IMG/VR virus record: IMGVR_UViG_2563366805_000002
Length of the DNA stretch: 30,982 nt
Strand: one strand, 5' to 3'
From: a virus
Taxonomy: Duplodnaviria > Heunggongvirae > Uroviricota > Caudoviricetes
Each line of letters begins with the position of its first letter. Position 1 is the stretch's first letter. The notes below the pieces were generated by a model. It was given only the letters and a program-made list of their open reading frames with translations. It ran no database searches and had not been told where the DNA came from. Below are positions 5,442 through 30,982 of this stretch, piece after piece. A program made the translations under genes and the position numbers.

Positions 5442-5446
5442 GGGAT

Positions 5447-6474: not shown

Positions 6475-9050
6475 CGTCCACCTCCGGAGAACAGACCACC
6501 ATCGCGCATCTGTGCCTGGATTTCATCACGGGCACCCTTGCGGGCCATGTCATACACCGCCTTCATCATCTGTGGACCTGGCAGACCATTCGTACCGTCG
6601 TTCTGAATCACCACGTGATTGTTCTGATTAAAATTAATGCCTTCAGCCCGCCGCATCTGCGCCGGACTTCCGGCACCGCCCACATAACCACCTTCCGCAT
6701 AGCCCCGCATCAGGCGGTACAGGTTGCCGACACCAATCCGGCTGGTTGCCTCCTTCGTGAAGACAAATTCACCACGGTGAACAATCCCCGCTGGCTCATA
6801 TTTGCCGCCGGTTCCCGTAAATCCCCCGGTCGCAAAATGGAATTTCGCCGCAGCGGCCTGAATGGCTGTACCGCCTGACGCGGATGCGCCGCCACCAACA
6901 GCCCCGCCAATGGCGCTGCCGATACTCCCGACAATCCCCACCATTGCCTGCTTAAGCAGAATTTCTGTCATCATGGACAGCACGGAGCGGGTGAAGCTGC
7001 GCCAGTTCTGTTCACTGCCGGTCAGCATCGCCGCCATATTCTGCGCAATACCATCAAAGGTCTGCGTGGCTGCACTTTTAACCTGCGACATACTGTCCGT
7101 GGCACTCTCTTTCCACTCGCTCCAGCCGGACCTGAGGCCTGCCATCCAGTTCCCGCGAAGCAGGTCTTCAGCCGCCCAGGTCTTTTTCTGCTCTGACATG
7201 ACGTTATTCAGCGCCAGAGGATTATCGCCATACTGTTCCTTCAGGCGCTGTTCCGTGGCTTCCCGTTCTGCCTGCCGGTCAGTCAGCCCCCGGCTTTTCG
7301 CATCAATAGCGGCCCGTTTTGCCCGTTGCTGCTGTGCGAATTTATCCGCCTGCTGCGCCAGCGCGTTCAGGCGCTCCTGATACGTAACCTTGTCGCCAAG
7401 TGCAGCCAGCTGGCGTTTGTACTCCAGCGTCTCATCTTTATGCGCCAGCAGGGATTTCTCCTGTGCAGACAGCTGGCGACGTTGCGCCGCCTCCTCCAGT
7501 ACCGCGAACTGACTCTCCGCCTTCCACAAATCCCGGCGCTGCTGGCTGATTTTCTCATTTGCTCCGGCATGCTTCTCCAGCGTCCGGAGTTCTGCCTGAA
7601 GCGTCAGCAGGGCAGCATGAGCACTGTCTTCCTGACGATCGCCCGCAGACACCTTCACGCCGGACTGTTTCGGCTTTTTCAGCGTCGCTTCATAGTCCTT
7701 TTTCGCCGCCGCCATCAGCGTGTTGTAATCTGCCTGCAGAATTTTCCCGTCCTTCAGTGCCTTGTTCAGTTCTTCCTGACGGGCGGTATATTTCTCCAGC
7801 GGCGTCTGCAGGCGTTCGTAAGCCTTCTGCGCCTCTTCGGTATATTTCAGCCGTGATGCCTCAGACTCGGCCCAGTCCTTTGCTGCCATCTCTCTGGCCT
7901 TTTCAAGATCGGCCTGCAACGTGGCGGCTGAAAGCCCAAGTTGCGCATTCGCTCTGTCCTCCCATGCTCCCCGGAGATTGGCAAGAAATGCTGAGGTTTT
8001 ACCGCGCCGGTGGCTCCGGCTCTGATACCACTGCCATTTTTTGTCCGCCTCATCAAAAGCCTTTTCTGCTTTCTCCAGCATTCCCTGGGCAGTGTCCGGG
8101 CGACCAATATCCAGCACCGAATCCCACATGGATTTGAATGCCCGTGCTGTCCTGTCTGCCCAGGTCTCCAGCGTGCCCATGTTCTCTTTCAGGCGGCGGG
8201 TCTGGTCATCAAACCCTTTCGTTGCGGCCTCGTTCGCCGCCTGCAATGCCCCGGCTTCATCTCCGGAACGCTGCAACTGAGCAACATACGCAATCTGCTC
8301 CGCCGTCACGTTATGGAACTGACGTGCCATCGCTGTCAGTCCCGACGTCGGGTCTGTGGTCAGCTTCCCGAAGGCTTCAGCGACCTTGTCCACCTCCACG
8401 CCGGATGCAGAGGAGAAACGCGCCACACTCTGGCTGATCGCCTCAAACTGCTCACCACCACGCACACCGGCATTCACCAGCGCCGTCAGTGACTCGCTGG
8501 TCTGGTTAAACGTCAGCCCTGCCGCCTGCCCGGCTCTGGACAGGACCAGCATACGATCTGCCGTCAGTCCCGCCTGATTGCCGGAAAGGACCAGCGTTTT
8601 GTTGAAATCGGACAGGGTTGAGTTGCCCTGATACCAGGCATACGCCAGCGCACCGGTCGCCACCGCCAGCGAGGTGGCCCCCACCATCGGCAGGGTGATC
8701 GCACCGGCAAGCCCCCTGAACATGGGGATCATCCCGCCGAAGGAGTCCTTAACCTGACCACCCTGTTGCAGCAGGATCAGCCACGGGCTTTGCCCGCCTG
8801 CAAGCTGCGTGGCCACGTCGGTGAACTGTGCAGGCAGCATACGCATGGCGGCTTTATACTGCCCGACGGAAATCCCCGCTTTCTGTGCAGCCAGCGCCTG
8901 TCGGCTCAGCGACTGTTCAACGACTGCCGCTGTTTTTTTCGCATCAGTTTCCGTACCGGAAAAATGACGCCTGACTCTGGCCATCTGCTCGTCAAATCTG
9001 GCCGCATCCAGACTTAAATCAACGACCAGATCGCCTACCGGTTCAGCCAT
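6471..9050 (-). CDS. H: Tail tape measure protein H
   Basis: 859-aa ORF, Ala/Gln-rich coiled-coil character, Gly-rich C-terminal region; position between T and M as in lambda. Confidence 0.9.
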   Translation of the reverse strand: MAEPVGDLVVDLSLDAARFDEQMARVRRHFSGTETDAKKTAAVVEQSLSRQALAAQKAGISVGQYKAAMRMLPAQFTDVATQLAGGQSPWLILLQQGGQVKDSFGGMIPMFRGLAGAITLPMVGATSLAVATGALAYAWYQGNSTLSDFNKTLVLSGNQAGLTADRMLVLSRAGQAAGLTFNQTSESLTALVNAGVRGGEQFEAISQSVARFSSASGVEVDKVAEAFGKLTTDPTSGLTAMARQFHNVTAEQIAYVAQLQRSGDEAGALQAANEAATKGFDDQTRRLKENMGTLETWADRTARAFKSMWDSVLDIGRPDTAQGMLEKAEKAFDEADKKWQWYQSRSHRRGKTSAFLANLRGAWEDRANAQLGLSAATLQADLEKAREMAAKDWAESEASRLKYTEEAQKAYERLQTPLEKYTARQEELNKALKDGKILQADYNTLMAAAKKDYEATLKKPKQSGVKVSAGDRQEDSAHAALLTLQAELRTLEKHAGANEKISQQRRDLWKAESQFAVLEEAAQRRQLSAQEKSLLAHKDETLEYKRQLAALGDKVTYQERLNALAQQADKFAQQQRAKRAAIDAKSRGLTDRQAEREATEQRLKEQYGDNPLALNNVMSEQKKTWAAEDLLRGNWMAGLRSGWSEWKESATDSMSQVKSAATQTFDGIAQNMAAMLTGSEQNWRSFTRSVLSMMTEILLKQAMVGIVGSIGSAIGGAVGGGASASGGTAIQAAAAKFHFATGGFTGTGGKYEPAGIVHRGEFVFTKEATSRIGVGNLYRLMRGYAEGGYVGGAGSPAQMRRAEGINFNQNNHVVIQNDGTNGLPGPQMMKAVYDMARKGARDEIQAQMRDGGLFSGGGR

Positions 9051-9477
9051 ACCGGACTCCTCCTGCGATCCCTTCTGATACTGTCATCAGCATTACGTCA
9101 TCCTCCGTCATGTCCGCCACATCCGGGGAAGCGGGGATAACTTCATTCCCGTCCGGGCCAAAACGAACGCCTCCGGCAAGCCCTGCCGCTTTCTGCATCA
9201 GCACATCATCTTCAGGCTCTTCGTCAGCCTCGCGCCGGTTCAGCAGACTGAAATCCAGCGGATGCATCTCCGGATCGCTGAAAAACAGGCTGAGCACGGT
9301 GTACGTCAGCCCGGAAAAGTGCATATCCAGCAGAACATCATGAAAATAATGGGTACTGTAAAAGCGGTGCCAGTCGGCATACTCCGTGGATGACATCCCG
9401 GCAAGCATGGCGCGCCAGTCGGGTCGCCCCATCTCACGCGCCAGTTTCAGGGCAAAACTCAGCTCACCGTCGAACAC
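9043..9477 (-). CDS. T: T portion of the G-T tail assembly chaperone (made by -1 frameshift from G)
   Basis: 435-nt ORF in the -1 frame relative to G, overlapping the G 3' end, same length as lambda T. Confidence 0.8.
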   Translation of the reverse strand: MFDGELSFALKLAREMGRPDWRAMLAGMSSTEYADWHRFYSTHYFHDVLLDMHFSGLTYTVLSLFFSDPEMHPLDFSLLNRREADEEPEDDVLMQKAAGLAGGVRFGPDGNEVIPASPDVADMTEDDVMLMTVSEGIAGGVRYG

Positions 9478-9881
9478 TTTCCCGCAGAAACAGGCTCTGC
9501 AGGCCCGGCGTCCTCTGCCTGTTCAGGAGCATCATTCACCACAAACTCATACATACCGGACAGCCGGTACACCACGTTTTCAGCATGAGAAATTGCCTCT
9601 GTGGGCCAGGTGGTAAGCACTTCCTGCTCAATCTGTTTAACGGCTTCATTCATGGAAGGCAGCTTTGTCTTCTTCGGATGGTTATGCCACAGGGACATCG
9701 CCACCAGAAACGCGCCGGTTCTGATGGCGTCTTCCACAGTAAACTTCCGGTTGCTGTCTGACTCCGCCTGTTCTGCCTGCCGTTTCATCAGGGCGAGATG
9801 CTCAATACGCTGCAGGGCTGACAGTTCAGAAAGCGTGACGGTCACACCGTTATGTTCAAATGATTCGGTTTTCAGGAACAT
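9459..9881 (-). CDS. G: Tail assembly chaperone G
   Basis: 140-aa ORF, same length as lambda G; ends just after the slippery heptamer. Confidence 0.85.
   Translation of the reverse strand: MFLKTESFEHNGVTVTLSELSALQRIEHLALMKRQAEQAESDSNRKFTVEDAIRTGAFLVAMSLWHNHPKKTKLPSMNEAVKQIEQEVLTTWPTEAISHAENVVYRLSGMYEFVVNDAPEQAEDAGPAEPVSAGKCSTVS
9477..9483 (-). promoter_or_regulatory. Programmed -1 ribosomal frameshift slippery heptamer G GGA AAG (G to G-T)
   Basis: Forward-strand ctttccc at 9477-9483 is the complement of GGGAAAG; in the G frame it reads gcG GGA AAG, the canonical X XXY YYZ arrangement, nine codons before the G stop. Confidence 0.75.
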
Positions 9882-9896
9882 CGCTGACTCTCCGGA

Positions 9897-10667
9897 TTAA
9901 CTGGCGGTGACGTTGATTTCTGCAACCGCAGCAAACTCACCATTACCGGATACGACGGGAATGTTGACCTTGCCTGCAGCAACACCTTTCACGGTGATGG
10001 TCATACCACTGACCGACACGGTGGCTTTTGTTTTATCCGCAGACACCGCACGGAAGCTCTTGTCGGTTGCGCCATCCGGCTGGAATGCCACGGTCAGCGT
10101 GGTGCTCTGCCCTTTCACTACGGAAGCACTGGCGGGTGTCACCGTCATGCCGGTTGTCGCCGTCACCGTGCTGCGATCTTCTGCCATCGACGGACGTCCC
10201 ACATTGGTGACCTTCACCGTGCGGGTAATCACTTCCTTCGCCGTCACCGCCTTACCGATACTGCTGACCCAGCCACGGAACACATCGACCGTGCCGTTCG
10301 GGAAGCGGATTTTATAGGCACGGGTATCGCCTTCATTAAACCACGCCAGCAGCGCCTGCTGCCCCTGCTCTCCGGGCATCCACGCCAGCGTGAAGCTGGT
10401 ATCTCCGGCAGATTTCTGCCCCTGCCCGGTCGCAGTCCAGTCTGCATCTTCATCATCGAGATAGCTGTCGTCATAAGACTCAGCGGTCAGTTCGCCGGGC
10501 GTCAGGTCTTTAACTTTTGCCAGACGCGACCAGTCAACGTCTGAAAGCGGATTCGCATAAGGGTCACCACTCCCCTTATAAACCCACAGGGTGGTCCCGG
10601 CCCCTTTCACCGGCATTACAGGATTTGGTACAGGCATAGCGTCCTCACATTTCATAGGTAATGACAT
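9897..10667 (-). CDS. V: Major tail tube protein V with C-terminal Ig-like domain
   Basis: 256-aa ORF; C-terminal Thr/Val/Ser-rich segment typical of a Big_2-like domain; lambda synteny. Confidence 0.9.
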
Positions 10668-11040
10668 AAGTCAGATCGGCTGAACTCCACAGGCCCGCAT
10701 CATCGTCGCGCCGATAGTCATAGCCGCTGGTCACCATACTGGTGATCAAATCTGACAGTGCCGGGATATCACTCATCACCGGATAAATCCGGGACTCCAT
10801 CCACGCATCCAGCTCTGAATCCGGCACCTGAGCAGGCAGGAAAACTTCAATATGCAGCTCCGCCTGCCAGGTATCGCTGTCCAGCTCTTCGCCCGTGTAT
10901 TCAGCGCCGGTGAGATAAACGGCAATTGCCGGAAAATCTTCCTCATCAAAAACAGCGGGGCGACCATCAAAAAGCGTCGCCCCGGTGTCATGCTTCTCCA
11001 GTGCATCCAGTACGGCTGCTCGGAGTTCAGTATGTTTCAT
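10645..11040 (-). CDS. U: Tail terminator protein U
   Basis: 131-aa ORF, same length and position as lambda U. Confidence 0.85.
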
Positions 11041-11615
11041 CGCTTTATTACCATCCTCAGTTGATGCTGCAGCGCATAGCCCAGCTCTTTCGGAAGACGC
11101 TCACGCCGTATCCGCTCAATATTCTGTTTAAACGCCGTGGTCAGCGGCACCGCCATCGGGATTTTCACCACATCAATGGGGTAACGATTTTTCCCGGCCA
11201 CACGCTGCATGACATGCCAGCGGCCATTTTTCAGTTGCTGAATAAACGCGCCGGGAATACGACGGTTTCCCACCACAAGCACGCTGCCGCCACCTTTCAG
11301 GGCTGAACGCTGCCCCTTTTTACGACGCCTGCGTCGGGACAGGACAATCCGCGCGTTACCCAGCTTTATTACGGGCAAATCCCCCCGGTTAACCCTGATT
11401 CTGGCCTGCGGATTTTTGACCGTGGCCCTTTTCAGCCTGGCCCTTTCCTTTACCAGTTTCCGGCGTACCTTTGTCTCACGGGCAACCTGTGACGCCGACT
11501 GCGATATCGCGGATGAAGCAACGCGGTTAATGGCCATTGCGGCGGCACCGGGCACCGCCGTTCTTCTGATACGGCTGAGGTTTTCAACGGCCTGCTCAAG
11601 ACCTTTTATGGCCAT
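11037..11615 (-). CDS. Z: Minor tail / tail completion protein Z
   Basis: 192-aa ORF, same length and position as lambda Z. Confidence 0.85.
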   Translation of the reverse strand: MAIKGLEQAVENLSRIRRTAVPGAAAMAINRVASSAISQSASQVARETKVRRKLVKERARLKRATVKNPQARIRVNRGDLPVIKLGNARIVLSRRRRRKKGQRSALKGGGSVLVVGNRRIPGAFIQQLKNGRWHVMQRVAGKNRYPIDVVKIPMAVPLTTAFKQNIERIRRERLPKELGYALQHQLRMVIKR

Positions 11616-11626
11616 ACATCCCCCTT

Positions 11627-11980
11627 TCAGCGGCGACGGTTAACGGCAGGCGGTACGCCCCGCCCAAGCCAGAGATGACAGCTTCCGCCATCATCCGGCG
11701 AAATCCGGTCTATCCAGAAGTTTTCCTCACCGATGGTCAGCGTGTCGCCGCGCCGCAGCTGCCGCACATCATCAGTCCGGACAAACAGGGACGGGCTGGA
11801 GCCTTCAACGCGCACGCCCTGTCCGGCATAGCTGATATTTTCAGGGTCATCAAAAACACCACGTATCACAGCACCGGACTGCTCACCGGATGTCATGGTG
11901 GCTGACGTTCCCATGTACCCGCGTATCGTTTCATCGGCGCGGGCAATGGCAGCATCGAACAGGTTATCGAAATCAGCCAC
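11627..11980 (-). CDS. FII: Head-tail joining protein FII
   Basis: 117-aa ORF, same length and position as lambda FII. Confidence 0.85.
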   Translation of the reverse strand: MADFDNLFDAAIARADETIRGYMGTSATMTSGEQSGAVIRGVFDDPENISYAGQGVRVEGSSPSLFVRTDDVRQLRRGDTLTIGEENFWIDRISPDDGGSCHLWLGRGVPPAVNRRR

Positions 11981-11991
11981 AGCGCCTCCCG

Positions 11992-12387
11992 TTATTGCAT
12001 TCTGGCCAGGCCGCGCTCTGTCATTTCAGCTGACACACCGGCAGAGACACGGAACGCCGTTCCCGGCAGCACAAATGCCACAGCCTCATCCCGCGTGGCG
12101 TGAAGTGCATCAGTATGCAGCGTCACCAGTGCCACAACCGTGACCAGATCAGCCGTATCAGTCACGGTATCCGGCTGCGCTGATACCACCTCATTTTCAT
12201 GTCCGGTCAGCGCATTTTCCGGGCTGACAGATGTGTCCTGACCGGCAGCGTCATCCGTGTCATCAATCTCCTCTTCCAGCTCTGCCACACGGAGCACCAG
12301 TTCTTCTTTCGTCCCCGTCAGGCTGACATCACGGTTCAGTTGCTCACCCAGCACCTGAAGACGGGCAATCAGTTCATCTTTCGTCAT
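11992..12387 (-). CDS. FI: DNA packaging / head assembly protein FI
   Basis: Start moved to ATG at 12385-12387 (MTKDELIARLQ...), which has a GGAGGAG SD; the ORF-track start at 12426 is a longer upstream extension. Confidence 0.8.
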   Translation of the reverse strand: MTKDELIARLQVLGEQLNRDVSLTGTKEELVLRVAELEEEIDDTDDAAGQDTSVSPENALTGHENEVVSAQPDTVTDTADLVTVVALVTLHTDALHATRDEAVAFVLPGTAFRVSAGVSAEMTERGLARMQ

Positions 12388-12428
12388 GGACTCCTCCACA
12401 GAGAGAAAATGGCCCCGAAGGGCCATGA

Positions 12429-13454
12429 TTACGCCAGTTGTACGGACACGAACGCATCAGGGTCAGCCAGCAGCATCAGCGGTGCTGACTGAATCATGGT
12501 GAACTCACGCGCCGGATCGCCGGTGGTCACCCAGTTTTTCGGGTAGCGGGCAGAGGCGTTAATACCTTCGCGCTGTGCGTCCGCATCCTGAATGCAGCCA
12601 TAGGTGCGCAGACCGCGTGCCTGAGTGTTCCCCAGCACCATCGTGTTGTCCGGAAGGAAGTTCTTTTTGACGTCGTTTTCCACGTACTGTCCGGAATACA
12701 CGACGATCGCCGTATCGCCATACATCCCCTTATAGGACACCGCTTCGCCCAGGTCTTTTACCGCTGTCTCCAGCTCGGAATTAGAGCCGCGACGGGTATC
12801 CAGCTTCTCCCTGACGGCTTTGAAGGAACGGAACAGCGCCCAGCCTTTCGGATCAAACACGATGATATTCACCACTCCGCTGGCGTTCAGCGCATAGGCT
12901 TCGATATCGTCGGTCGGGTCATACGTGGACTTGTCACGCTTGCTCCACTCCGTACCACCGGACTGTGTGATGTTGTTCGCCGCACTGCGGCCCATATCCA
13001 CCTCAACCGGATCGAAGGCTTCACCGGTCATGGTGTATTTGCCCTTAAGCACAGCAGAAACTGCCTGCATCTCTTCGACCTGAGCAATGGCCAGCTCTTC
13101 GTCTCGCATGTTCTGCATGATGATGCGACGGCGGCGGTAAGCCGGGTCCGCCAGATTCTGCGGATCTTCATCCGGCAGGCGACGCAGGGTCATCTGCGGA
13201 TTCACCTCATGCTTCGGCTTGACATATCCCGGTGTAAATTCAGAGGTGGAGCCGCCACGGGAGCGGATAACCTCACCGGAAACAATCGGCGAAACGTACA
13301 GCGCCATGTTTACCAGTCCCGGAATTTGTGAGAGATAGACTTTCTCCGTGGTGAAGGGATAGCTCTCACGGAAAAAGAGACGCAGAAACAGCGGATCAAA
13401 CTTAAATTTCTTCTCATTTGCCGCCAGCAGCTGGGCGGTTGTGTACATCGACAT
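12429..13454 (-). CDS. E: Major capsid protein E
   Basis: Start at MSMYTTAQLLAANE (ATG 13452-13454); 341 aa, matching lambda E length and sequence as I recall it. Confidence 0.9.
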   Translation of the reverse strand: MSMYTTAQLLAANEKKFKFDPLFLRLFFRESYPFTTEKVYLSQIPGLVNMALYVSPIVSGEVIRSRGGSTSEFTPGYVKPKHEVNPQMTLRRLPDEDPQNLADPAYRRRRIIMQNMRDEELAIAQVEEMQAVSAVLKGKYTMTGEAFDPVEVDMGRSAANNITQSGGTEWSKRDKSTYDPTDDIEAYALNASGVVNIIVFDPKGWALFRSFKAVREKLDTRRGSNSELETAVKDLGEAVSYKGMYGDTAIVVYSGQYVENDVKKNFLPDNTMVLGNTQARGLRTYGCIQDADAQREGINASARYPKNWVTTGDPAREFTMIQSAPLMLLADPDAFVSVQLA

Positions 13455-13509
13455 AAAAAAATCCCATAAAAAAAGCCGCACAGGCGGCCTTTAGTGATGA
13501 AGGGTAAGG

Positions 13510-13842
13510 TTAAACGATGCTGATTGCCGTTCCGGCAAACGCGGTCCGTTTTTTCGTCTCGTCGCTGGCAGCCTCCGGCCAGAGCACATCCTCATAACGG
13601 AACGTGCCGGACTTGTAGAACATCAGTGTGGTGCTGGTCTGGTCAGCAGCAACCGCCAGAATGCCAACGGCAGCACCGTCGGTGGTGCCATCCCACGCAA
13701 CCAGCTTACGGGTGGAGGTGTCCAGCATCAGCGGGGTCATTGCAGGCGCTTTCGCACTCAATCCGCCGGGCGCGGTTGCGGTATGAGCCGGGTCACTGTT
13801 GCCCAGCGGCTGGTAATGGGTAAAGGTTTCTTTGCTCGTCAT
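13510..13842 (-). CDS. D: Capsid decoration protein D
   Basis: Start at [12 protein letters not shown]; 110 aa, matches lambda D. Confidence 0.9.
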
Positions 13843-13851
13843 AAACATCCC

Positions 13852-15151
13852 TTACACTGGTGTGTTCAGCAAATCGTTAACGGCATCAGATGCCGGGTTA
13901 CCTGCAGCCAGCGGTGCCGGTGCCCCCTGCATCAGACGATCCAGCGCAGTGTCACTGCGCGCCTGTGCACTCTGTGGTGCTGCGGCCAGAATGCGGCGGG
14001 CCGTTTCCACGGTCATACCGGGGGTTTCTGCCAGCACGCGGGCCTGTTCTTCGCGTCCGTGAGCCTCCTCACAGTTGAGGATCCCCATAATGCGGCTGTT
14101 TTCTGCCGCAACCGCAGCGGTGATCTGCGCGTTCACGTCCGGCTGCGCCGCGCTGGCGTTTTCGCCCTCCGTCGCTGGCACCACGTCAGTAACGTCAGCC
14201 TGCGAAGCAGTGGCTGAAACAGTTGTTGATTGAGTCTCTTTGGTCATTCGCCCTCCTGAGAGACGGGATTTACGTGCATCCAGTGCATCACGCATAACGG
14301 TGATCGCATCGGTGCTGTTGACAAGTTCATCAGCCAGTCCGGCATCAATGGCCTCCTGACCGCTGTACACTGCAGCCTCGGTATCCAGCACAGCCTGCAC
14401 GGACAGGCCGGTATATGCCGACACCTTCTGCGCAAACATCCGGCGGGTTGCATCCATCCGGGACTGCAGTGTCTCCCGGACGTCATCCGGAAGATGGCTG
14501 TAGGGGTTGCCATCCACCTTATGGCTGCCGCTGTAAATCAGCGTGATTTCCACGCCCTGTTTCTCCAGCGCAGCGCCGTAATTACTGTGAGCCATCATGA
14601 CGCCGATGGAGCCTGTCCGTGCGGTCTGCGTGACCAGACGTCGGGAGGCGGCACTGGCAAGCAGCTGACCTGCACTGCAGTTCATGTCGTTGGCCAGCGC
14701 CCATACCGGCTTTATGTCACGCACACGGGCGATGATGTCAGCGCAGTCAAATGCTCCCGCCACCATTCCGCCCGGTGTGTCCATATCGAGCAGAATGCCG
14801 TCCACCATCGGGTCGCTGGCAGCCTGTTGCAGACGGGCGATAATGCCGTTGTAACCGGTCATCCCCGAGTACGGCTGCAGCGCCCGCGTCCGGCTGACCA
14901 GCGTGCCGGACACCGGCAGCACGGCGATGCCGTTCATGACCTGATAACTGCGGGCCTGTCGTGGTCCGTCATCATCACCGGATAATGCCAGCGTCGCGGG
15001 TGCCTCCTGGGCAGTCAGGCTGTCGCCGGACACCGCATCCGTCAGGCGGCTGATCCCAAGCTGGCCTGCAAGCGCACAAAAGAAAACCCGCGCATAGGCG
15101 GGTTCAAGCATCAGCGGCTCATTAAAGGCCATGCTGGCAATATGCGGGAGA

Positions 15152-15171
<20 letters not shown>
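13852..15171 (-). CDS. C: Capsid assembly protease C (S49 peptidase family; the Nu3 scaffold is an in-frame C-terminal product)
   Basis: GTG start at 15169-15171 (VTAELRNLPHIASMAF...) preceded by an AGGAGA SD; 439 aa as in lambda C; overlaps the B 3' end by 20 nt as in lambda. The ORF-track N-terminal extension is rejected. Confidence 0.85.
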
Positions 15172-18852
<3,681 letters not shown>

Positions 18853-18878
<26 letters not shown>

Positions 18879-19398
18879 TCAGCAACCCCGGTATCAGTTC
18901 ATCCAGCGCGGCTGCTTTGTTCATGGCTTTGATGATATCCCGTTTCAGGAAATCAACATGTCGGTTTTCCAGTTCCGGAAAACGCCGCTGCACCGACAGG
19001 GGGATCCCGTCGAGAATACTGGCAATTTCACCTGCGATCCGCGACAGCACGAAAGTACAGAATGCGGTTTCCACCACTTCAGCGGAGTCTCTGGCATTCT
19101 TCAGTTCCTGTGCGTCGGCCTGCGCACGCGTAAGTCGATGGCGTTCGTACTCAATAGTCCCTGGCTGGAGATCTGCCTCGCTGGCCTGCCGCAGTTCTTC
19201 AACTTCCCGGCGCAGCTTTTCGTTCTCAATTTCAGCATCCCTTTCGGCATACCATCTTATAACGGCGGCAGAGTCATAAAGCACCTCATTACCCTTGCCA
19301 CCGCCTCGCAGAACGGGCATTCCCTGTTCCTGCCAGTTCTGAATGGTACGGATACTCGCACCGAAAATGTCAGCCAGCTGCTTTTTGTTGACTTCCAT
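18853..19398 (-). CDS. Nu1: Terminase small subunit Nu1
   Basis: 181-aa ORF beginning MEVNKKQLADIFGASIRTIQNWQEQGMPV (winged-HTH DNA-binding N-terminus), matching lambda Nu1. Confidence 0.9.
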
Positions 19399-20488: not shown

Positions 20489-20639
20489 ACCATAACGTCC
20501 GGCTTCTCTCACTCCTGAGCCGGACTGCATTGGTTTAATAAAAACCATCAACAATTGTGATTTAGATATTCGGAACCATTCAAATATAACAAAACCCCGT
20601 AAAAACGAGGTTTATGGATAAATTTTATTATTGAATACA

Positions 20640-20812
20640 TCAGATTAAATTAATCTTGACATCATAGCTTTCAAGACCCGTCATTTTTTCCCGTGCGGTA
20701 AACTGAATACTGGTAACTTCTTTCCCGGTCTTTTTCTTAAGTTCAATAATTTTTTTGTTATATATTCAGAAATATCTGCTTCTGCTTTTGTTTTTAAGTT
20801 TTCAATATTCAT
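20640..20812 (-). pseudogene. gnsB: gnsB/gnsA-like gene with a 1-nt frameshift in a homopolymer
   Basis: Minus-strand ATG at 20810-20812 gives MNIENLKTKAEADISEYITKK, then the frame breaks in the T7 run at 20750-20756. Adding one base restores ...IIELKKKTGKEVTSIQFTAREKMTGLESYDVKINLI, stop at 20640-20642. The 173-nt span is one short of a multiple of three. Confidence 0.55.
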
Positions 20813-21214: not shown

Positions 21215-21485
21215 GATGTTACCGTAGTATGTGAGTATCCATCGAATAGACACCAAGCCAAAAAGCTCCCGAAGGAGCCTTCATTTTCACTTTTTTAAAT
21301 CCAACGACAGACGGCTGGCATTTAAGTATTGTGAAATATTATCAAATGTAATCATCATTGATTTACAAAAGATACATTTTGCCCCGAAAGGATTCATGTC
21401 AGAAACATCAAAAGATGATGTTCTATACTGGGAACCATGACAACACGGGCATCTAAAGTGAATATGGTTTGTAATATTGTCTACC

Positions 21486-21698
21486 TCAAAGCGCCACTAC
21501 ATGAACAGCGGCAGGACCTTTAGGTCCGTTCTCAATACCAAATTCAACTTCCTGATTCTCAGTTAATGTTTTGAAATCGTTGCTCTGAATTGCTGAGAAA
21601 TGGACAAACACATCTTTGCTGCCATCTTTCGGCGTGATGAAACCAAAACCTTTTTCAGGGTTAAACCATTTTACTAAACCAGTCATTTTGTTAGACAT
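21486..21698 (-). CDS. cspI: Cold shock protein CspI-like (CspA family)
   Basis: 70-aa [41 protein letters not shown] with RNP1/RNP2 motifs; matches E. coli CspI as I recall it. Confidence 0.85.
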
Positions 21699-22048
21699 AA
21701 TTATTACCTTTTGAAGAAATTAGCCCTTGGGCAGAATGGTCCGAAAAAAAATATCAGAGAGAAAAACCAACAAGGAAATCTCAAGAGGTACAAATAATAA
21801 AATTATAACAATGACTGCTTCAGATAAATTTGTAACAAACCAGAACACCATTAACGCATGATTAACCACCCATAGCAAGGATTACTTTTGTAAAGAAAAA
21901 CACAGCAATGAAAGAATAGCTTTATTTATTAATAAAACGTGTCATTCTGATTAAGACCTTTTATCTTACCCTTAAGATTTCAGGAATTTTGGCTCATGGA
22001 AGAGTCCTTTTTATTTAAATTTTACATTCCGCGGGTAATGACTCCAAC

Positions 22049-22552
22049 TTATTGGTAGTGTTTTATGTTCAGATAATGCCCGATGACTTTGTCATGCAGC
22101 TCCACCGATTTTGAGAACGACAGTGACTTCCTGCCCAGCCTTGCCAGATGCTGCCTCAGATTCAGGTTATGCCGCTCAATGCGCTGCGTATATCGCTTGC
22201 TGATAACGTGCAGTTCTCCCTTCAGGCGTGATTCATAAAGCGGCCAGCCATCCGTCATCCATACCACGACCTCAAAGGCCGACAGCAGGCCCAGAAGACG
22301 CTCCAGCGTGGCCAGCGTGCGTTCACCGAATACGTGCGCAACAACCGTCCTCCGTATCCTGTCATACGCGTAAAACAGCCAGCGCTGGCGCGATTTAGCC
22401 CCGACATAGCCCCACTGTTCGTCCATTTCCGCGCAGACGATGACGTCACTGCCCGGCTGTATGCGCGAGGTTACCGACTGCGGCCTGAGTTTTTTAAATG
22501 GCGGAAAATCGTGTTGAGGCCAACGCCCATAATGCGGGCAGTTGCCCGGCAT
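22049..22552 (-). CDS. insB: IS1 InsB (normally expressed as the InsAB' transposase by a -1 frameshift)
   Basis: 167-aa ORF matching IS1 InsB; the A6C frameshift motif is present (complement of gtttttt at 22489-22495). Confidence 0.85.
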
Positions 22553-22746
22553 CCAACGCCATTCATGGCCATATCAATGATTTTCTGGTGCGTACCGGGT
22601 TGAGAAGCGGCGTAAGTGAACTGCAGTTGCCATGTTTTACGGCAGTGAGAGCAGAGATAGCGCTGATGTCCGGCGGTGCTTTTGCCGTTACGCACCACCC
22701 CGTCAGTAGCTGAACAGGAGGGACAGCTGATAGAAACAGAAGCCAC
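22471..22746 (-). CDS. insA: IS1 InsA
   Basis: 91-aa [46 protein letters not shown] (zinc finger, HTH); GTG start. Confidence 0.85.
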
Positions 22747-22796
22747 TGGAGCACCTCAAAAACACCATCATACACTAAATCAGTAAGTTGGCAGCA

Positions 22797-23072
22797 TCAC
22801 CGGATTTTCAATCTTAAAGGAGTACTGATGCTGCAGATAAGACTCAACTTTTCTGACAATTTTTCTGCTACTTCCAGGAAGACTTGCCGGACGCTCATTC
22901 TGGCTGCTGCCTCATAAAACTCCAGCGTAGCTCCTTCAACACGGTCCATGGCGACATCCAGGCCAAAAATTTCACCGTCAAAGCGTTCTTTGTCCTGTAA
23001 GGCTACAGTTACCGTAACTTTATTCTCAAAATTACGGACTCCTTTCACAACCAGTTCATAGCCTTGAGTCAT
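22797..23072 (-). pseudogene. ydfR: YdfR-like lysis-region protein, 3' end replaced by the IS1 terminus
   Basis: 91-aa ORF directly downstream of the holin; its stop codon (22797-22799) lies inside the IS1 terminal repeat. Assignment to YdfR is by size and context only. Confidence 0.4.
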
Positions 23073-23076
23073 TGGA

Positions 23077-23292
23077 TTATTCTCCTCTCGCAGCCTTACG
23101 CCTGTCTTCTTTAATCTTGAAATAAAGATTTGTCAGATACGTCAGCAGGCCAAAAACCAGGCTACCCAGCACACCGATTGCAGCCCACTGTGACGGAGTT
23201 ACTTTATCGAGTAACTGCAATGCCCAGAAACCAGCATTACCCGCCGATGTGCCATAGGCAACACCTGTTGTTAACTTATCCATTGATTTCAT
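23077..23292 (-). CDS. essQ: Phage holin (class II-like, EssQ/EssD-like)
   Basis: 71 aa from [30 protein letters not shown]... with two predicted TM segments and a charged C-terminus ([13 protein letters not shown]); SD GGTGAGGA upstream. Confidence 0.75.
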
Positions 23293-23511: not shown

Positions 23512-23682
23512 ATGTCAGAACGTAAAGACTCAAAATCACGCCGTAATTATCTCGTTAAATGTTCCTGCCCAAACTGCACCCAAGAGTCAGAACACAGTTT
23601 TTCAAGAGTACAAAAAGGTGCCCTTTTGATCTGCCCTCATTGCAACAAAGTATTCCAGACAAATCTTAAAGCTGTAGCCTGA
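23512..23682 (+). CDS. ynfU: Small zinc-ribbon protein (YnfU-like, 56 aa)
   Basis: MSERKDSKSRRNYLVKCSCPNCTQ...LICPHCNKVF carries CxCPxC and CPHC motifs; SD AGGAAA 7 nt upstream of the ATG at 23512. Confidence 0.5.
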   Translation: MSERKDSKSRRNYLVKCSCPNCTQESEHSFSRVQKGALLICPHCNKVFQTNLKAVA

Positions 23683-23764: not shown

Positions 23765-24045
23765 GAGATTGTGGTGCTTTTTGTGGGAGTCATCCACTTA
23801 CGCACTTTGTTTTGCCATGCCAGCAGTTAGCTTCTGCTGTAAAACTATTCATGCAGCAAACCTGCACTTCACCACAATGGTTAGCATACTTTTCCTGATT
23901 AAGATTTTGCCAAATATGCTGGCCATTGTTTCATGTATTGGACCTCCTTAATTTTTATTAAAGAAATCCAATATTCACTACTCTGTCCGTATCTCTACTC
24001 AGGCATCAGCCTTCTTCGTTATCGTATACAGACGAGCGATGAATT

Positions 24046-24261
24046 TTAATCAGTAATGATGACATTTGCTGCTGCAGGACCTTTAGCACCACTCTCTATA
24101 GAGAAGGTAACCTTTTGACCTTCAAATAAGGTTCGATAATTATCATTCTGAATCGCAGAAAAATGCACAAACACATCTTTACTACCATCAACAGGAGAAA
24201 TAAAGCCGAAACCTTTATCAGCGTTAAACCATTTTACTAAACCAGTCATTTTATTTGACAT
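24046..24261 (-). CDS. cspB: Cold shock protein CspB-like
   Basis: 71-aa [56 protein letters not shown]...; matches E. coli CspB as I recall it. Confidence 0.85.
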
Positions 24262-24561
24262 TCTACATTCCTTAACTTGAGCCTTTCGGCATAAATGGTT
24301 TGCATAACAGAAACGACTTCGTACTTAATTGGAGAGACTCAAAGAAGGAATAAGTGAATAACACCTGAAATGAGAACTGCTTTAGTAAACTACTTCGTAT
24401 ATCGTCTGTTCTTCAAACCGACGCAATCATTAACGCATAGTTGAACATATGAAGCAATGTTTATTTTAGACATCCAGCCATCTTCAACCCCATCAAAAAA
24501 CTATAGCTTTCTTCAGGAACGTGTGTATAGTGCGCCAAGTTATCAGTATTAAGGAATTTTT

Positions 24562-24774
24562 TTGTCCCGTAAAATGACAGGAATTGTCAAAACCTTTGAC
24601 GGCAAAAGCGGCAAGGGTCTTATCACCCCATCCGATGGTCGTATCGATGTCCAGCTTCATGTTTCAGCGCTCAATCTCCGCGATGCAGAAGAAATTACCA
24701 CCGGATTACGCGTGGAATTTTGCCGGATAAATGGTCTGCGTGGCCCTTCAGCTGCCAATGTTTACCTTTCATGA
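24562..24774 (+). CDS. cspF: Cold shock protein CspF-like (divergent CspA-family member)
   Basis: 70-aa [44 protein letters not shown]...; divergent from cspB across a 300-bp intergenic region. Confidence 0.8.
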
Positions 24775-25195: not shown

Positions 25196-25948
25196 TTATC
25201 TCGTCACCTTCCTCAATTGCGCTTCCGCGTATGCTTCTTCCTGCCAGCACTTTGTTACCAGTTTACCAATGACGTCCGCATACCCCTTATACCACTGATA
25301 ATCGGTCAGGTCTGGTACCAGCTTCTGGACATGACGTCGTGCCAGCGTGGTCGGTAAACGACTAAACCGGTTTCCATTACAACGCCCACAAATCTTATAT
25401 ACCGGTACGCCATGAAACCGGGTTCTTTTTTCATCCAGAACAATCCCTTTACCCTTACACCCTCTGCACGCTGTGCTGGCTTCGCCCTTACCATGGCAAT
25501 GCTGACATAGTTCCTTCACCCATTCTTCCTTGATTACAGATTCCCCGCGTCTGTAGTGTTTCACCACTTCGCGCAATACATTATAAAATCCCGTACCTGA
25601 ACAATGCTCACAGCGAGCCTTACTTGCCGCAGACCTGGAGTAATCAGCAAAGGCAAAACTCACGAGGTAAGGAATAATCTGTAACCGGATTTCTTCACTC
25701 AATTTGTTCAATGTCGGGTTATCCAGTGCCATCGCGTAATTTAGCAGGCCTTCAATCGCAAACTGAGGGTCCTGAACACCAACTTTTGCCAGAAATAAGG
25801 CCAACCCAAGTGGTGCTTTCGACTGCACCATCCCCTGCGCTGCCATTACATCCGTAATTGTTAAACAACCGGTGCCTGTCGCTGGAGCGTCATCGCTCAA
25901 TTTTGGAGATTTTGGGGAGTAATATTTTGGTAAGGCTTCAAGGTTCAT
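25196..25948 (-). CDS. quuQ: Late-gene antitermination protein Q (QuuQ-like, zinc-finger Q family)
   Basis: 250 aa from MNLEALPKYYSPKSPKLSDD...; C-terminal CEHCSGTG...CQHCHGKG...CRGCKGKG...CGRCNG cysteine clusters; located upstream of the holin. Confidence 0.8.
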   Translation of the reverse strand: MNLEALPKYYSPKSPKLSDDAPATGTGCLTITDVMAAQGMVQSKAPLGLALFLAKVGVQDPQFAIEGLLNYAMALDNPTLNKLSEEIRLQIIPYLVSFAFADYSRSAASKARCEHCSGTGFYNVLREVVKHYRRGESVIKEEWVKELCQHCHGKGEASTACRGCKGKGIVLDEKRTRFHGVPVYKICGRCNGNRFSRLPTTLARRHVQKLVPDLTDYQWYKGYADVIGKLVTKCWQEEAYAEAQLRKVTR

Positions 25949-25961
25949 GCTCGTTCTCCAC

Positions 25962-27010
25962 TTACGCCAGTACGCCAATTGCCAGCGCGCGATCGATAAA
26001 ACGAAATATCAGCTCCAGTTGGGAGCCATACTTCTCTTCAAATGCCACTGTATCCGTATGCAGCTCGTTGTGATGCTTTCTGCACAAAGGCAACACAAAG
26101 AGATCATGTGCTTTTGTTCCCATTCCGCCCTGCCCGTGACCAATCAGATGATGCGGATCGTCGGCTGGCATACCGCAGCAAGCATACGGCTGTGTCTTAA
26201 CCCAGCGTGTGTATTTCTCCTTAACCCACCGGTGACGTTTAGGCAGCTTCATGAAAGATTCCGGAGACTCTGGATCAACGGTGATGCTTACCACCGTCTT
26301 TTCCTGTGATGGGTTTTGTTGCTGGTGGGCGTGAGGCAACGGTGCAAGATTTTTTGTGCGCTGTTTCAATATGCTGGTGGCGGTCTGCTCTCCCGGTACG
26401 ATGTCGCTTTCGCGGTACACCGAGCAGATTTTTTCCGCTGGTAATCCCAGCGAGCGACGTAATACCGCTTCCGGTAGCGCGTCCGCCAGCTGATTGCGGA
26501 CCGCCCACCAGGAAATTCAGCCAGAGATAATTCACGCTCCTGCGTACCGCTTATTGCGTGACCGATGACGTCAATCATCCATGCTGACAGGTTTTGATGA
26601 GCAAGTTGCTCGAGTGATTCGGATGTCTGGTCACGCAGCTGGTTGTCGCAGTGCCAGCACAACACCATTGCGCCGGTACCATATCGGTGAATAACGGTTT
26701 CGCTGTGATGATAATCGCCGTGTGGCCACTGGCAGGATTTAATATGGCGCAACAGCCAGTCAGACAATGCACCAGCACCACCAGCAGCACGAATTACCCG
26801 TGTGTTACTGAAAAACGGCAGCAATGTTTTGTCTTCCACCAGCGGCTGGCGAACGGCAGGAACGACCCCGGACGGCAGATTACGCATGCTTTTCGGTTCC
26901 GGCTCCACCAGTACCCGGGTATTGTGGAATACCGGCATGGATTCACGGCCCGGCTTAACGACCACCAGCCCGAGTTCCGGTACCAGAACAGGTCGAAGTA
27001 ATACCCGCAC
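25962..27010 (-). pseudogene. ydfU: YdfU-like (DUF968) gene split by a 1-nt frameshift
   Basis: Two overlapping minus-strand ORFs (26366..27010 and 25962..26420) in different frames; the combined span of 1049 nt is one short of 1050 (349 codons plus stop), matching the K-12 YdfU length as I recall it. A T6 run at 26429-26434 lies in the overlap zone. Confidence 0.5.
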
Positions 27011-27748: not shown

Positions 27749-27904
27749 TTACTCCTCAGGTTCGTAAGCTGTGAAGACAGCGACCTCCGTCTGGCCGGTT
27801 CGGATTCGTACCTCGCAGAGGTCTTTCCTCGTTACCAGTGCCGTCACTATGACGGTTAAACAGATGACGATCAGGGCGATTAACATCGCCTTTTGCTGCT
27901 TCAT
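27749..27904 (-). CDS. hokD: Hok-family type I toxin (HokD/RelF-like)
   Basis: 51 aa MKQQKAMLIALIVICLTVIVTALVTRKDLCEVRIRTGQTEVAVFTAYEPEE; SD AAGGAGAAG about 6 nt upstream. The ORF track shows an in-frame 19-codon upstream extension. Confidence 0.85.
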   Translation of the reverse strand: MKQQKAMLIALIVICLTVIVTALVTRKDLCEVRIRTGQTEVAVFTAYEPEE

Positions 27905-28519
27905 AGCCTGCTTCTCCTTGCCTTTCGGCACGTAAGAGGCTAACCTACATGTGTCTAGCATGAAATTGGCCTCAGATTAATGTTAAGCGTCTTGCAGGAC
28001 GCGTAATGTCAACTGGGGCTTTTCTCTATCTGCCTTTGGTGTTCATGCCTGAGGCAGATAGCCTCAAGCACCCGCAGCAATTCTACTTAACTCACGTCAC
28101 CTCGCCAATATAAAATCAATCAGAAAGGCGATCCGTAAGAACAACAGCAAGACAATAAATTGCCATTACAGCCGCAATAGCTAGCGCACATTTGAGAACC
28201 AGCACGACAACCTCCTGTATTGGACGTACACCAGTCCTGATAAATATGAGGCTGTCTCATCATTGATTCAATATAACTATTGGGTATAGTTTCTGTGATT
28301 TTGTTCTGTAGAAATGGAACACAACAACCAGTCTCCACCAGCACTTCTTTAAATACGCCAAGTCCGACGCAAGCTAACCTTCTAGTCCGCTTTGAGCGAA
28401 CTGTGGAAGCTCGCAAATGTTGTTACATCTGATGAAGGCATTACTCAAAGGAGGGGATAGTAGTCAACGTGGAGCAGGCCATGTTAGTATTTTTATACAA
28501 TTCGACTAAGGGAAAAACA

Positions 28520-28708
28520 ATGAGGCTTTACATAATAGGAAATGGATTTGACATGCGTCATGGCTTACCAACAGGATACAAGCACTTTAAGTCGTATGTA
28601 GAAAAAAATGACCAAGATCTATATGACGCGATAGAAGAATACATTCCTGCTGGGGACGAGTGGAATGAGTTAGAAAATGCTTTAGGTGAAATTGATTATG
28701 AGCTTTGA
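28520..28708 (+). pseudogene. AbiH-like abortive-infection gene, N-terminal 62 codons only (cut by IS3)
   Basis: MRLYIIGNGFDMRHGLPTGYKHFKSYVEKN... carries the N-terminal IIGNGFD...HGL motif I associate with the AbiH family (Pfam PF14253); the stop codon TGA at 28706-28708 is the first three bases of the IS3 terminal repeat. Confidence 0.5.
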
Positions 28709-29150
28709 TCCTACCCACGTAATATGGACACAGGCCTAAGCGAGGTTCTTGTTTTCAAATTGTTCCGGACTGAGGCCGCCACACCAACTGTGCCGCCGCC
28801 ACCGATTGTAATCACATTCGATATAATTAAACACCGTTGCCCGCATTATTTCCCGGCTGATAAAGTGTTCTCCATGGATACATTCCACTTTCAGCGAATG
28901 AAAGAAGCTTTCCACGCAGGCATTATCGTAGCAGCAACCTTTTGCGCTCATACTTCCACGCAGATTATGCCGCTTCAGTTGCGCCTGATAATCTGCTGAA
29001 CAGTACTGGCCTCCACGGTCCGTGTGAACGATAACGTTCCGGGGCCTCTTACGCCGCCACAGCGCCATCTGCAGGGCATCGCAGGCCAGTTGCGCCGTCA
29101 TGCGTGGCGACATTGACCAGCCAATAACGGCACGTGACCACAGGTCAATG
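28706..29150 (-). mobile_element. IS3: IS3 fragment (terminal ~445 bp including the right inverted repeat)
   Basis: TGATCCTACCCACGTAATATGGACACAGGCCTAAGCGAGG terminal sequence at 28706; encodes the InsF C-terminus ...[13 protein letters not shown]; IS3 homology stops abruptly at 29150. Confidence 0.85.
28736..29150 (-). pseudogene. insF: IS3 transposase InsF (orfB), C-terminal portion only
   Basis: Residues ...[49 protein letters not shown]... including the DDE-domain region; the N-terminal part is replaced by the IS629-like element. Confidence 0.8.
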
Positions 29151-29202
29151 TGAACCGCCCCGGTAATCCTGGAGACTACACTCTTTGAGAGAGGTAACCA
29201 GG

Positions 29203-29526
29203 ATGACAAAACATAACCGATTTCCCCCTGAAGTTCGTCAACGCGCTATTCGTATGGTTCTGGAAAACCAGAATACCTACAACTCACAATGGGCCGCTAT
29301 CTGCTCCATTGCCCCTAAGATCGGCTGCACTCCCGAGACATTGCGTATCTGGATCCGTCAGCAGGAGCCCGTTGATGATGAGCAGAATGCGCTGACTGCC
29401 AGCGAACGCCAGCGTCTGAAAGAACTGGAGCGGGAAGTCCGCGAGCTGCGCCGCAGCAATGATATTCTGCGTCAGGCTTCAGCGTATTTTGCCCAGGCGG
29501 AGCTCGACCGCCACTGGAAAAAATAA
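29203..29526 (+). CDS. IS3-family transposase OrfA (HTH)
   Basis: [54 protein letters not shown]... with a leucine-zipper-like C-terminus; related to IS629 OrfA. Confidence 0.8.
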
Positions 29527-29940
29527 TGCCGCTTCTGGAAAATCTGAGCGGTGAACACGGGGTCGGGCCAGTCTGTCATGAGCTGGATATTGCTCCGTCA
29601 ACGTACTACTGGCATCAGCAACGCCGGAAGTGTCCTGAACGACGCAGTAGTCGGGATAAACGCGATGCCGTGCTGATACCTGAGATACAGCGCGTATACG
29701 AAGAAAACTACAGCGTTTACGGTGTGCGTAAGGTCTGGCGACAGCTAAAACGTGAAGGTGTCGGCGTTGCCCGCTGCACCATTGAGCGCCTGATGAAAGC
29801 CCTGCAGCTACGTGGGGTGACACGCGGCAAAAGTGTCAGAACCACCCGCAGCAACAAAGCCGAAACACCGCAGGATCGGGTGAACCGGCAGTTCGTGGCT
29901 GAACGGCCCGATAGTCTTTGGGTGGCCGATTTTACCTACG
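29526..29940 (+). CDS. IS3-family transposase OrfB, 5' portion (interrupted after ...LWVADFTY by the intron)
   Basis: The frame reads ...RPDSLWVADFTY and then enters intron sequence at 29941; the ORF-track residues after this (GVPGVQGEHGC...) are intron-encoded read-through. Confidence 0.7.
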
Positions 29941-30982
29941 GTGTGCCCGGAGTTCAGGGTGAGCATGGATGCTCAAATGAACCACGAGTCTGTCTGGAAT
30001 ATTGAACCGGTAACTCACGATGAGAAACCCAACAATCCCGTCGGGTGTGACGGCGGAGAACCTGAGCGGCAGTGACCTGCGGCATGCCCGCAGGGTGATG
30101 TAACCCGCTGACAACGGGGATTGAGGCGAGATCACTAAGCCGAGATGATCCTCAAGGTTAAGTACTGAAAGGCTGAAGAACATGAACCCGTTAATCCGCC
30201 TCTGTGGGTTGAAAACGTCACCACGGCCTACGTGATCTGACAGGCCGTGCAGGAGGAACTGGCAGTGATACGTAAGCACTGCCGGTCGAAGGTTTTTTGA
30301 CATGTATGCGAAACACCGGGGCAGCAGCGTCTATCACGCTTGCGTTGCTGACCTCTGCCAACTTGCGGCAAGCAAGGATAAAGAGTGCGACGGGCAGCCT
30401 CCTCAGTATGCCTGAGTCCAGACAGGTAAACCGGGGAAGGTCAGCGACGGATGTTAAGGGGGCATGGCTCCGATGACGCGCTGGCTGGCGGAGCTTCCGT
30501 AGTAGTCCGCGATGGGGAAAGCCCATTACATGGCGAAGGGAAGCAGTTTGAATGTGTTTGCGACGTGAATTAACTGACCTAACGAGGTGAAGACCTTTGA
30601 TAATCAGCGAAATGCAACGCAAGCTTGCCACATGGGCAGTCACCGATCCGTCCCTACGGATTCAACGGCTGCTGCGTCTGATAACACAACCAGAATGGCT
30701 GGCTGAAGCGGCGCGGATCACGCTTTCATCAAAGGGGGCCCATACCCCCGGCGTTGATGGCGTGAACAAAACAATGCTACAGGCCAGACTGGCTGTTGAG
30801 CTGCAAATCCTCAGGGATGAATTACTCTCAGGCCACTACCAGCCCTTGCCCGCCAGACGGGTTTACATCCCTAAAAGCAACGGCAAACTGCGACCACTGG
30901 GTATCCCCGCGTTGCGGGATCGTATTGTTCAGCGGGCCATGCTGATGGCGATGGAGCCGATATGGGAGAGTGATTTTCATAC
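29941..30982 (+). mobile_element. Group II intron, 5' part (domains I-IV and start of the intron-encoded protein), continues beyond the window
   Basis: Begins GTGTGCCCGGAG... (GUGYG consensus, similar to the Ll.LtrB 5' end GTGCGCCCAGAT); about 670 nt of structured non-coding sequence, then an RT-type ORF. Confidence 0.7.
30612..30982 (+). CDS. Group II intron-encoded reverse transcriptase/maturase, N-terminal 123 codons (partial)
   Basis: MQRKLATWAVTDPSLRIQRLLRLI...HTPGVDGV...YIPKSNGKLRPLGIPALRDRIVQRAMLMAMEPIWESDFH has the RT domain 0/1 signatures (TPGVDG, RPLGIP, RDRIVQ). An alternative TTG start at 30597 has better spacing to GAGGTGA. Absent from the ORF track because there is no stop in the window. 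Confidence 0.8.
   Translation, partial: MQRKLATWAVTDPSLRIQRLLRLITQPEWLAEAARITLSSKGAHTPGVDGVNKTMLQARLAVELQILRDELLSGHYQPLPARRVYIPKSNGKLRPLGIPALRDRIVQRAMLMAMEPIWESDFH

Follow-up and report, generated by a model that had tools for sequence, protein, structure and literature searches.

The lysis cassette of phage 21 combines the S21 pinholin, the R21 signal-anchor-release (SAR) endolysin and Rz/Rz1. A full cassette of this type thus comprises a pinholin, a SAR endolysin, an i-spanin and an o-spanin, and the outer membrane is disrupted by the spanins once the other components have acted. Pinholin channels of about 2 nm depolarize the membrane and release the membrane-tethered SAR endolysin (PMC9636201).

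A closely related arrangement is found in the Qin-type family, where ydfR (DUF1327) sits between the holin and endolysin genes. The isolated phages PhiR42_1, Tritos, HannyBb and mEp460_ev081 carry this essD-ydfR-rrrQ-rzpQ cassette at 94-100% identity, together with an early region. An intact cassette is also present in about 2,105 of 5,426 complete Escherichia coli genomes, and we consider it a working lysis module because it is identical to those of the isolated phages PhiR42_1 (100%) and Tritos (99.7%). In the Qin prophage of E. coli K-12, the gene order is cspI-rzpQ/rzoQ-rrrQ-ydfR-essQ-ynfU-cspB-cspF-ydfT-ydfU-hokD; rzpQ, rzoQ, rrrQ and an in-frame ydfR are kept, whereas nearly all virion genes are gone (nohA-stfQ fusion). 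Insertion sequences are able to remove DNA stepwise: in the long-term evolution experiment, IS insertion was followed by adjacent deletion and then by deletion extension (PMC11708052).

Here, we analyzed a stretch of 30,982 nucleotides (IMG/VR record IMGVR_UViG_2563366805_000002, Caudoviricetes), which we refer to in its whole length as the window. In contrast to K-12 Qin, the prophage that it contains keeps 20 virion and packaging genes; its endolysin and spanin genes have given way to an IS1 element, and IS3 and a group II intron have taken the place of the early region (relBE to intQ). Unlike phage 21 and the isolated phages mentioned above, which have complete cassettes, it is left with a pinholin alone. 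That the loss of the lysis genes is associated with IS1, whatever the mechanism, is close to certain, and the locus is probably what an IS1-mediated adjacent deletion left behind in a lambdoid prophage of the Qin family.

State of the prophage

The window is collinear with K-12 Qin, following the order cspI...essQ...cspB-cspF-ydfT-ydfU-hokD, with 96.8-99.3% identity on both sides of the deletion. From this collinearity, we assign the prophage to the Qin family and to the Qin locus. The boundaries of the locus (ydfJ, rspBA) lie outside the window and were seen in C 236-04A and ABWA45, two relatives. With truncated ydfJ at one end and rspA at the other, the relatives occupy the same chromosomal locus as K-12 Qin.

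The genes Nu1, A, W, B, C/Nu3, D, E, FI, FII, Z, U, V, G, T, H, M, L, K, I, and J (619-19398, minus strand) constitute a lambda-type packaging and virion module that is apparently intact. When searched by tblastn with 20 proteins of the isolated phage PhiR34_1, all 20 genes were found at full length and without stop codons. Over 97% of its length, the module shares 97% identity with the isolated phages Kati, PhiR34_1, and mEp332.

The cold-shock gene cspI (21486-21698, minus strand) was recognized from the ORF list and the RefSeq annotation of relatives. Its mRNA leader, which matches the cspA thermoregulator (21459-21844; Rfam RF01766, 115 bits), lies outside the deletion, and the cspI upstream region extends over 335 bp (21699-22033). 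Further along are ynfU, encoding a small zinc-ribbon protein (23512-23682, plus strand; Pfam YnfU, 2.5e-31, and the annotation of relatives), cspB (24046-24261, in a region read on the minus strand), and cspF (24562-24774, plus strand). The gene ydfT/quuQ (25196-25948, minus strand; Pfam Antiterm, 4e-54, and annotation) encodes a Q-type late antiterminator; it is intact and located upstream of cspF, cspB, ynfU, essD, and the late operon. The neighboring ydfU is frameshifted in the window.

IS3 fragments interrupted by a group II intron fill positions 28709-30982 (Rfam ALIL pseudoknot at 29481-29597), the place expected for the early region (relBE ... dicA/dicB ... intQ), and by alignment no homology to K-12 Qin was detected in the window beyond hokD. 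In the closest complete relatives, the non-tail side consists of hokD and IS debris up to a truncated rspA, the debris adjoining truncated rspA or ynfE. These alignments indicate that the early region, with repressor, replication, recombination, and integrase functions, is entirely gone past hokD. Since this region is missing, the prophage would be a non-inducible remnant. The first-pass annotation had pictured a prophage with a full packaging and virion module that was merely unable to lyse. The module and the lysis defect are both real, but the prophage is not otherwise complete, as the early region is gone: the loss of lysis is one lesion among several, a true defect but not the limiting one.

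The surviving holin and the ydfR remnant

The holin gene essD/essQ is intact (23077-23292, minus strand) and matches Pfam PF04971 "P21 holin S" (4e-34) as well as PHROG holin families. By tblastn, its product is 100% identical to the EssD of intact cassettes. It has the dual-start motif MKSM at an N-terminus reading MKSMDK, as expected of a class II holin of the S21 family. EssD is therefore a phage 21-type class II holin (pinholin), and is the only component left of the lysis cassette. A pinholin could not in any case release a cytoplasmic endolysin.

Next to the holin gene lies a remnant of ydfR (22802-23072, minus strand), which has lost its 3' 40 bp and bears a 1-bp deletion in a T-run at 22849-22852. 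The corresponding YdfR-like ORF (22797-23072) has 91 codons, of which the last 16 are out of frame, and then runs 5 nt into IS1, where it ends at a TGA (22797-22799). It had been noted in the first-pass annotation that IS1 supplies the stop codon of this ORF, and it does so; however, the frame had already been lost through the 1-bp deletion. RefSeq labels ydfR as "frameshifted" in relatives. Strain 2018-18.25PC carries the same frameshift while still possessing intact rzpQ and rrrQ and no IS1 at the site, and the frameshift thus predates the IS1 event. The segment 22802-23072 is better named a ydfR pseudogene than an ORF.

The IS1 element and its flanks

The IS1 element is complete (768 bp, 22034-22801, minus strand), with its IRR end at 22034 and its IRL end at 22801; both termini were read directly. 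Both terminal inverted repeats are present, the element starting with GGTAATGACTCC... at 22034 and finishing with ...GGCAGCATCACC at 22801. Its length of about 768 bp and its imperfect repeats of about 23 bp (GGTGATGCTGCCAACTTACTGAT / GGTAATGACTCCAACTTATTG) are those of the IS1 family. Two intact reading frames are found on the minus strand: insA (22471-22746; Pfam Zn_ribbon_InsA and HTH_Tnp_IS1) and the insB' frame (22049-22552; Pfam DDE_Tnp_IS1, 6e-74). They are joined by an A6C -1 frameshift motif, TTTAAAAAAC, at IS1 position 304, another hallmark of IS1. Identity to annotated IS1 copies ranges from 95.6 to 99.6%, and the element carries a 3-nt patch resembling gene conversion.

On the left, the flank cattccgcg (22025-22033) is the last DNA in common with the intact allele, ending at K-12 position 1,639,002, and lies 27 bp downstream of the site of the rzpQ stop codon in intact alleles. 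On the right, homology to the intact allele resumes with ggattttca (22802-22810), at K-12 position 1,640,094, inside ydfR. Read directly, these flanks differ, and no target-site duplication (TSD) surrounds the window IS1. The absence is meaningful because duplications of 8-9 bp accompany all five simple IS1 insertions that we examined in this cassette or lineage, in ymcF, rzpQ, rrrQ (two sites), and Rac. A missing TSD is expected if a deletion came after the insertion, and does not affect the identity of the element as an IS1.

The deleted interval

We aligned the window to the intact essD-ydfR-rrrQ-rzpQ-cspI alleles of K-12 MG1655 Qin, strain Survcare321, and strain 2018-18.25PC. IS1 stands in place of exactly 1,091 bp, corresponding to positions 1,639,003-1,640,093 of K-12 MG1655 and 5411-6501 of the intact-allele locus L002. 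Both breakpoints fall precisely at the IS1 termini (window 22033 / 22802). DNA present in the intact allele is thus absent from the IS terminus outward, the IS itself being kept, as in adjacent deletions. Along with the 27-bp spacer, the prophage has lost rzpQ, in which rzoQ is embedded, rrrQ, and 40 bp from the 3' end of ydfR.

The genes lost are those that would complete the cassette. In K-12, rzpQ and rzoQ (i-spanin and o-spanin) both lie within the deleted interval, and RzpQ, an Rz-like i-spanin, matches the PHROG family "Rz-like spanin". RrrQ matches Pfam Phage_lysozyme and can be aligned to two lysozymes in the PDB, 3hde and 4zpu (RrrD); the alignment begins at residue 9 and takes in a Gly/Ala-rich hydrophobic N-terminal segment. 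Entry 3hde is the phage 21 endolysin, the prototype of SAR endolysins. On these similarities, the deleted rrrQ is predicted to encode a SAR-type endolysin.

No homologs of RrrQ or RzpQ were detected in the window by tblastn (best E = 1.5), which therefore has neither a SAR endolysin gene by the holin nor an Rz/Rz1-type pair of i- and o-spanin. Nor are there lysozyme or spanin genes in the PGAP annotation of near-identical relatives covering the window. The sole peptidase-like gene of the window encodes gpK, a C40-family protein that belongs to the tail and not to the lysis enzymes. Nor does the rest of the prophage, on either side of the window, contain an endolysin or spanin in the closest complete relatives; in a close relative, the tail side includes J and, beyond the window, lom, stf, tfa, pin, ydfK, and a truncated ydfJ, with no lysis genes.

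These results bear out what the first-pass annotation had read from the locus, namely a holin with neither endolysin nor spanin, and a complete IS1 with differing 9-bp flanks and no TSD. It had proposed an alignment to Qin as a check, and this alignment now defines the 1,091-bp deletion. The exact replacement supports its view that the locus arose by deletion or inter-IS1 recombination and not by simple insertion. Lysis genes elsewhere in the prophage, which it had named as grounds for abandoning its reading, are absent from the closest complete relatives.

Nested junctions in E. coli genomes

Probes of 140 bp spanning each junction were run against 5,426 complete E. coli genomes. The left IS1 junction occurs in 23 of them, all of which are accounted for by three alleles. 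Allele A, that of the window, has its right junction at 22802 and is found in 14 genomes; it lacks rzpQ/rzoQ, rrrQ, and the 3' end of ydfR. Allele B (eight genomes) has its right junction at 23087 and has additionally lost the entire ydfR and the essD stop codon, so that its holin is a 75-residue protein ending in ...KAARVMLPTY. Allele C, found in the single strain 2273-PO3, has its right junction at 23404 and has additionally lost the entire essD. The left junction is thus fixed while the right end varies, as in a nested series of deletions. Allele A is already present in its 14 public RefSeq genomes, labeled "IS1 family transposase" beside a "frameshifted DUF1327" pseudogene.

Allele C also has a second IS1 copy as a direct repeat of the first, and the two enclose 27 kb of chromosome that runs from smrA through Rac to an MFS transporter gene. 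We rejected a plain larger deletion as a description of this allele: the ynfU-to-hokD side persists in 2273-PO3, 27 kb away behind the second IS1, and a further inter-IS1 rearrangement must therefore have taken place.

Among the five relatives compared (ABWA45 and CX21 for allele A, 0H26 and CAVP776 for B, and 2273-PO3 for C), the IS1 copies are identical across alleles. The flanks differ at 0-2 positions over 4.8 kb, with one SNP common to B and C. By this near-identity, the three alleles are a single prophage lineage. Strain 2018-18.25PC, whose flanks are near-identical to those of the window and which has no IS1 at the site, represents the haplotype before IS1 arrival.

A simple-insertion progenitor would be marked by IS1-IRL followed by (C)ATTCCGCGATGTAAATG, or by TTATTGGCAGGATTTTCA followed by IS1-IRR. 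At neither the left nor the right deletion junction did we find such an insertion, with its TSD, in the 5,426 complete E. coli genomes, where only the three deletion alleles were returned, and exact-pattern scans of metagenome contigs and species-representative genomes likewise yielded none. Its absence from these databases is no proof against its former existence.

Mechanism of the deletion

We infer that IS1 would first have entered the spacer at a point 27 bp beyond the end of rzpQ, with its IRR end abutting ...CATTCCGCG and its transposase genes oriented like the late operon. By intramolecular replicative transposition, the IRL end may then have attacked a site in ydfR, at a distance of 1,091 bp along the molecule. 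The intervening DNA (rzpQ with rzoQ, rrrQ, and the 3' 40 bp of ydfR) would have been released as a circle that took one IS copy with it, and been lost, and one IS1 would have stayed behind without a TSD. In sister lineages, the deletion extended twice more from the same IS1 end, to the end of essD and past essD entirely, as seen in alleles B and C. The nested endpoints point to adjacent deletion proceeding stepwise outward from the IRL end of one resident IS1. Should B and C be descendants of A, IS1 could have entered first at either junction, and the first deletion could have run in either direction. The locus resembles known IS-mediated adjacent deletions in that the IS is kept, the deletion begins exactly at one IS terminus, no TSD is present, and successive extensions start from the same end. 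It differs from laboratory cases in that it comes from natural isolates and its simple-insertion progenitor was not found.

The main competitor to adjacent deletion is a RecA-dependent crossover between IS1 copies in direct repeat, the first having inserted downstream of rzpQ and the second within ydfR, which would leave one hybrid IS1 with non-matching half-TSDs, an end product identical to that of adjacent deletion. We regard this as unlikely, though it deserves serious consideration. IS1 is abundant in the host genomes (25-40 matching places per genome) and has entered the cassette independently elsewhere, in rzpQ (IAL72xx strains), in rrrQ (GCUET01, J31), and at other sites in the interval. 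All of the cassette hits seemed to lie the same way, an apparent orientation bias that we set aside as an artifact: the search joins same-strand pieces only, and opposite insertions are invisible among high-coverage hits. IS1 copies also interact in this lineage, as seen in the 27-kb segment of allele C between repeats and in the 3-nt conversion patch. A recombinant IS1 would be unrecognizable here, since no differences separate the IS1 of alleles A, B, and C from one another or from other copies in 2273-PO3. However, to produce the endpoints 22802, 23087, and 23404, recombination needs another three IS1 insertions in the same orientation within 1.7 kb, with a recombination event after each, and neither a two-IS1 intermediate nor an IS1 alone at any of the three right-hand sites occurs in any of the 5,426 genomes.

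Far less probable is the capture of IS1 in one step at a double-strand break or deletion junction, outside normal transposition chemistry. Capture without TSD has been proposed for IS5 and IS481 events and would likewise yield a TSD-less IS in the middle of a deletion, yet the same study explains each of the 14 deletions associated with an IS in the long-term evolution experiment as an ordinary adjacent deletion (PMC11708052). It would also leave unexplained why one exact IS1 junction is found in three alleles while the other end moves outward. As a multicopy repeat, IS1 is a common source of mis-assembly, and a collapsed or mis-joined copy could mimic the loss of lysis genes; nevertheless, both flanks are otherwise collinear with intact alleles, and we exclude an assembly or sequencing artifact, at a negligible residual probability, because the same pair of junctions recurs in 14 complete genomes that were assembled independently, by different laboratories in different countries. 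Adjacent deletion from a resident IS1 therefore remains our preferred explanation. An IS-mediated deletion of this sort is of an ordinary, well-understood, textbook kind, and nothing at the locus departs from known kinds.

Consequences for lysis and prophage decay

By analogy with phage 21-type lysis, peptidoglycan and outer membrane would be unbreachable without the endolysin and spanins, and we infer that late-gene expression, if any, would depolarize the membrane and kill the cell without lysis. The loss of the SAR endolysin and spanins could also be read as selected domestication rather than neutral decay, with hosts that repeatedly disarm the cassette but retain the pinholin for some non-lytic function, for example stress-triggered depolarization or abortive infection. 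We consider this highly improbable. The reading draws on two observations: pinholin, Q antiterminator, cold-shock genes, and a complete virion module have all been kept, and IS1 has independently disrupted rzpQ or rrrQ in other E. coli lineages.

The IS1 deletion accounts for a prophage with a holin but no endolysin or spanin, and carries little weight beyond annotation. The element is a dead remnant, neither a threat to its host nor a source of phage. It provides a tidy natural case of stepwise IS1 adjacent deletion, with three nested endpoints at one IS1 end in 23 public genomes. This fits the accepted view of prophage decay driven by insertion sequences, and the clean nested series in natural isolates is its only mildly notable point.

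IS1 Elements in the Qin Lysis Cassette

The complete IS1 copy of the window (22034-22801, minus strand) is identical to the IS1 of all relatives except for three clustered differences, at positions 22498, 22501 and 22504, where the window reads AATGGCGG and the relatives AGTGACGT. The cluster adjoins the A6C frameshift site of the element and results in the substitution F81L in InsA. As both states of these positions are present in other IS1 isoforms, the comparison suggests that a different IS1 copy donated this short patch by gene conversion.

The same cassette has been struck by independent IS1 insertions in other E. coli lineages (loci L011, L012, L013 and L014, and hit H176). Four IAL72xx strains carry an insertion in the spanin gene rzpQ, the endolysin gene rrrQ is interrupted at two different sites in GCUET01 and J31, and HL15 harbors an IS1X2 inside the rzpQ-ydfR interval. 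In EC05, an IS1 in rzpQ directly abuts ynfB, and the remainder of the prophage is therefore gone.

Strain 2273-PO3 (L009, NZ_CP061749.1) presents a large rearrangement between IS1 copies: at 11851-40226, inside its Qin-type prophage, a 27-kb chromosomal segment lies between two directly repeated IS1 elements. This segment comprises smrA, dgcM, zntB, dbpA, ttcA, the Rac prophage, and BCCT and MFS transporter genes. A third IS1, located within Rac, is flanked by a clean 9-bp target-site duplication (CAACTATCC).

Conservation and Decay in the Rest of the Prophage

The leaders of the two cold-shock genes of the prophage, cspI (21459-21844) and cspB (24030-24422), match the cspA thermoregulator over its full length; that of cspI is intact, with the IS1 lying approximately 190 bp upstream of it. 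In gnsB (about 20639-20812, minus strand), the T-run at 20749-20755 has seven residues, versus eight in K-12 and every relative compared, which shifts the reading frame and leaves a 44-aa ORF instead of the 57-aa GnsB; the shorter run may reflect either a genuine mutation or an error in sequencing the homopolymer. The DUF968 gene ydfU (25962-27010) is broken up into two ORFs, 152 and 214 aa long, that overlap each other; the annotations of all close relatives list it as a frameshifted pseudogene.

The hokD/sok toxin-antitoxin locus is kept (27749-28073; Rfam sok, 119 bits) and is followed by a 75-aa AbiH-family fragment (28481-28708). From there to the end of the window (28709-30982), the prophage early region has been replaced by IS3 fragments, which contain an ALIL frameshift pseudoknot (29481-29597) and are themselves split by a group II intron (ltrA in the relatives). 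Beyond this stretch the relatives vary, with IS110, IS30, and then a truncated rspA or ynfE.

In the near-identical relative ABWA45, an insertion of the IS66-family element ISCro1 (L001, 9336-12032) separates E, the major capsid gene, from the decoration gene D. It is absent from the corresponding junction of the window (13442/13433), whose virion module is therefore less decayed than that of ABWA45.
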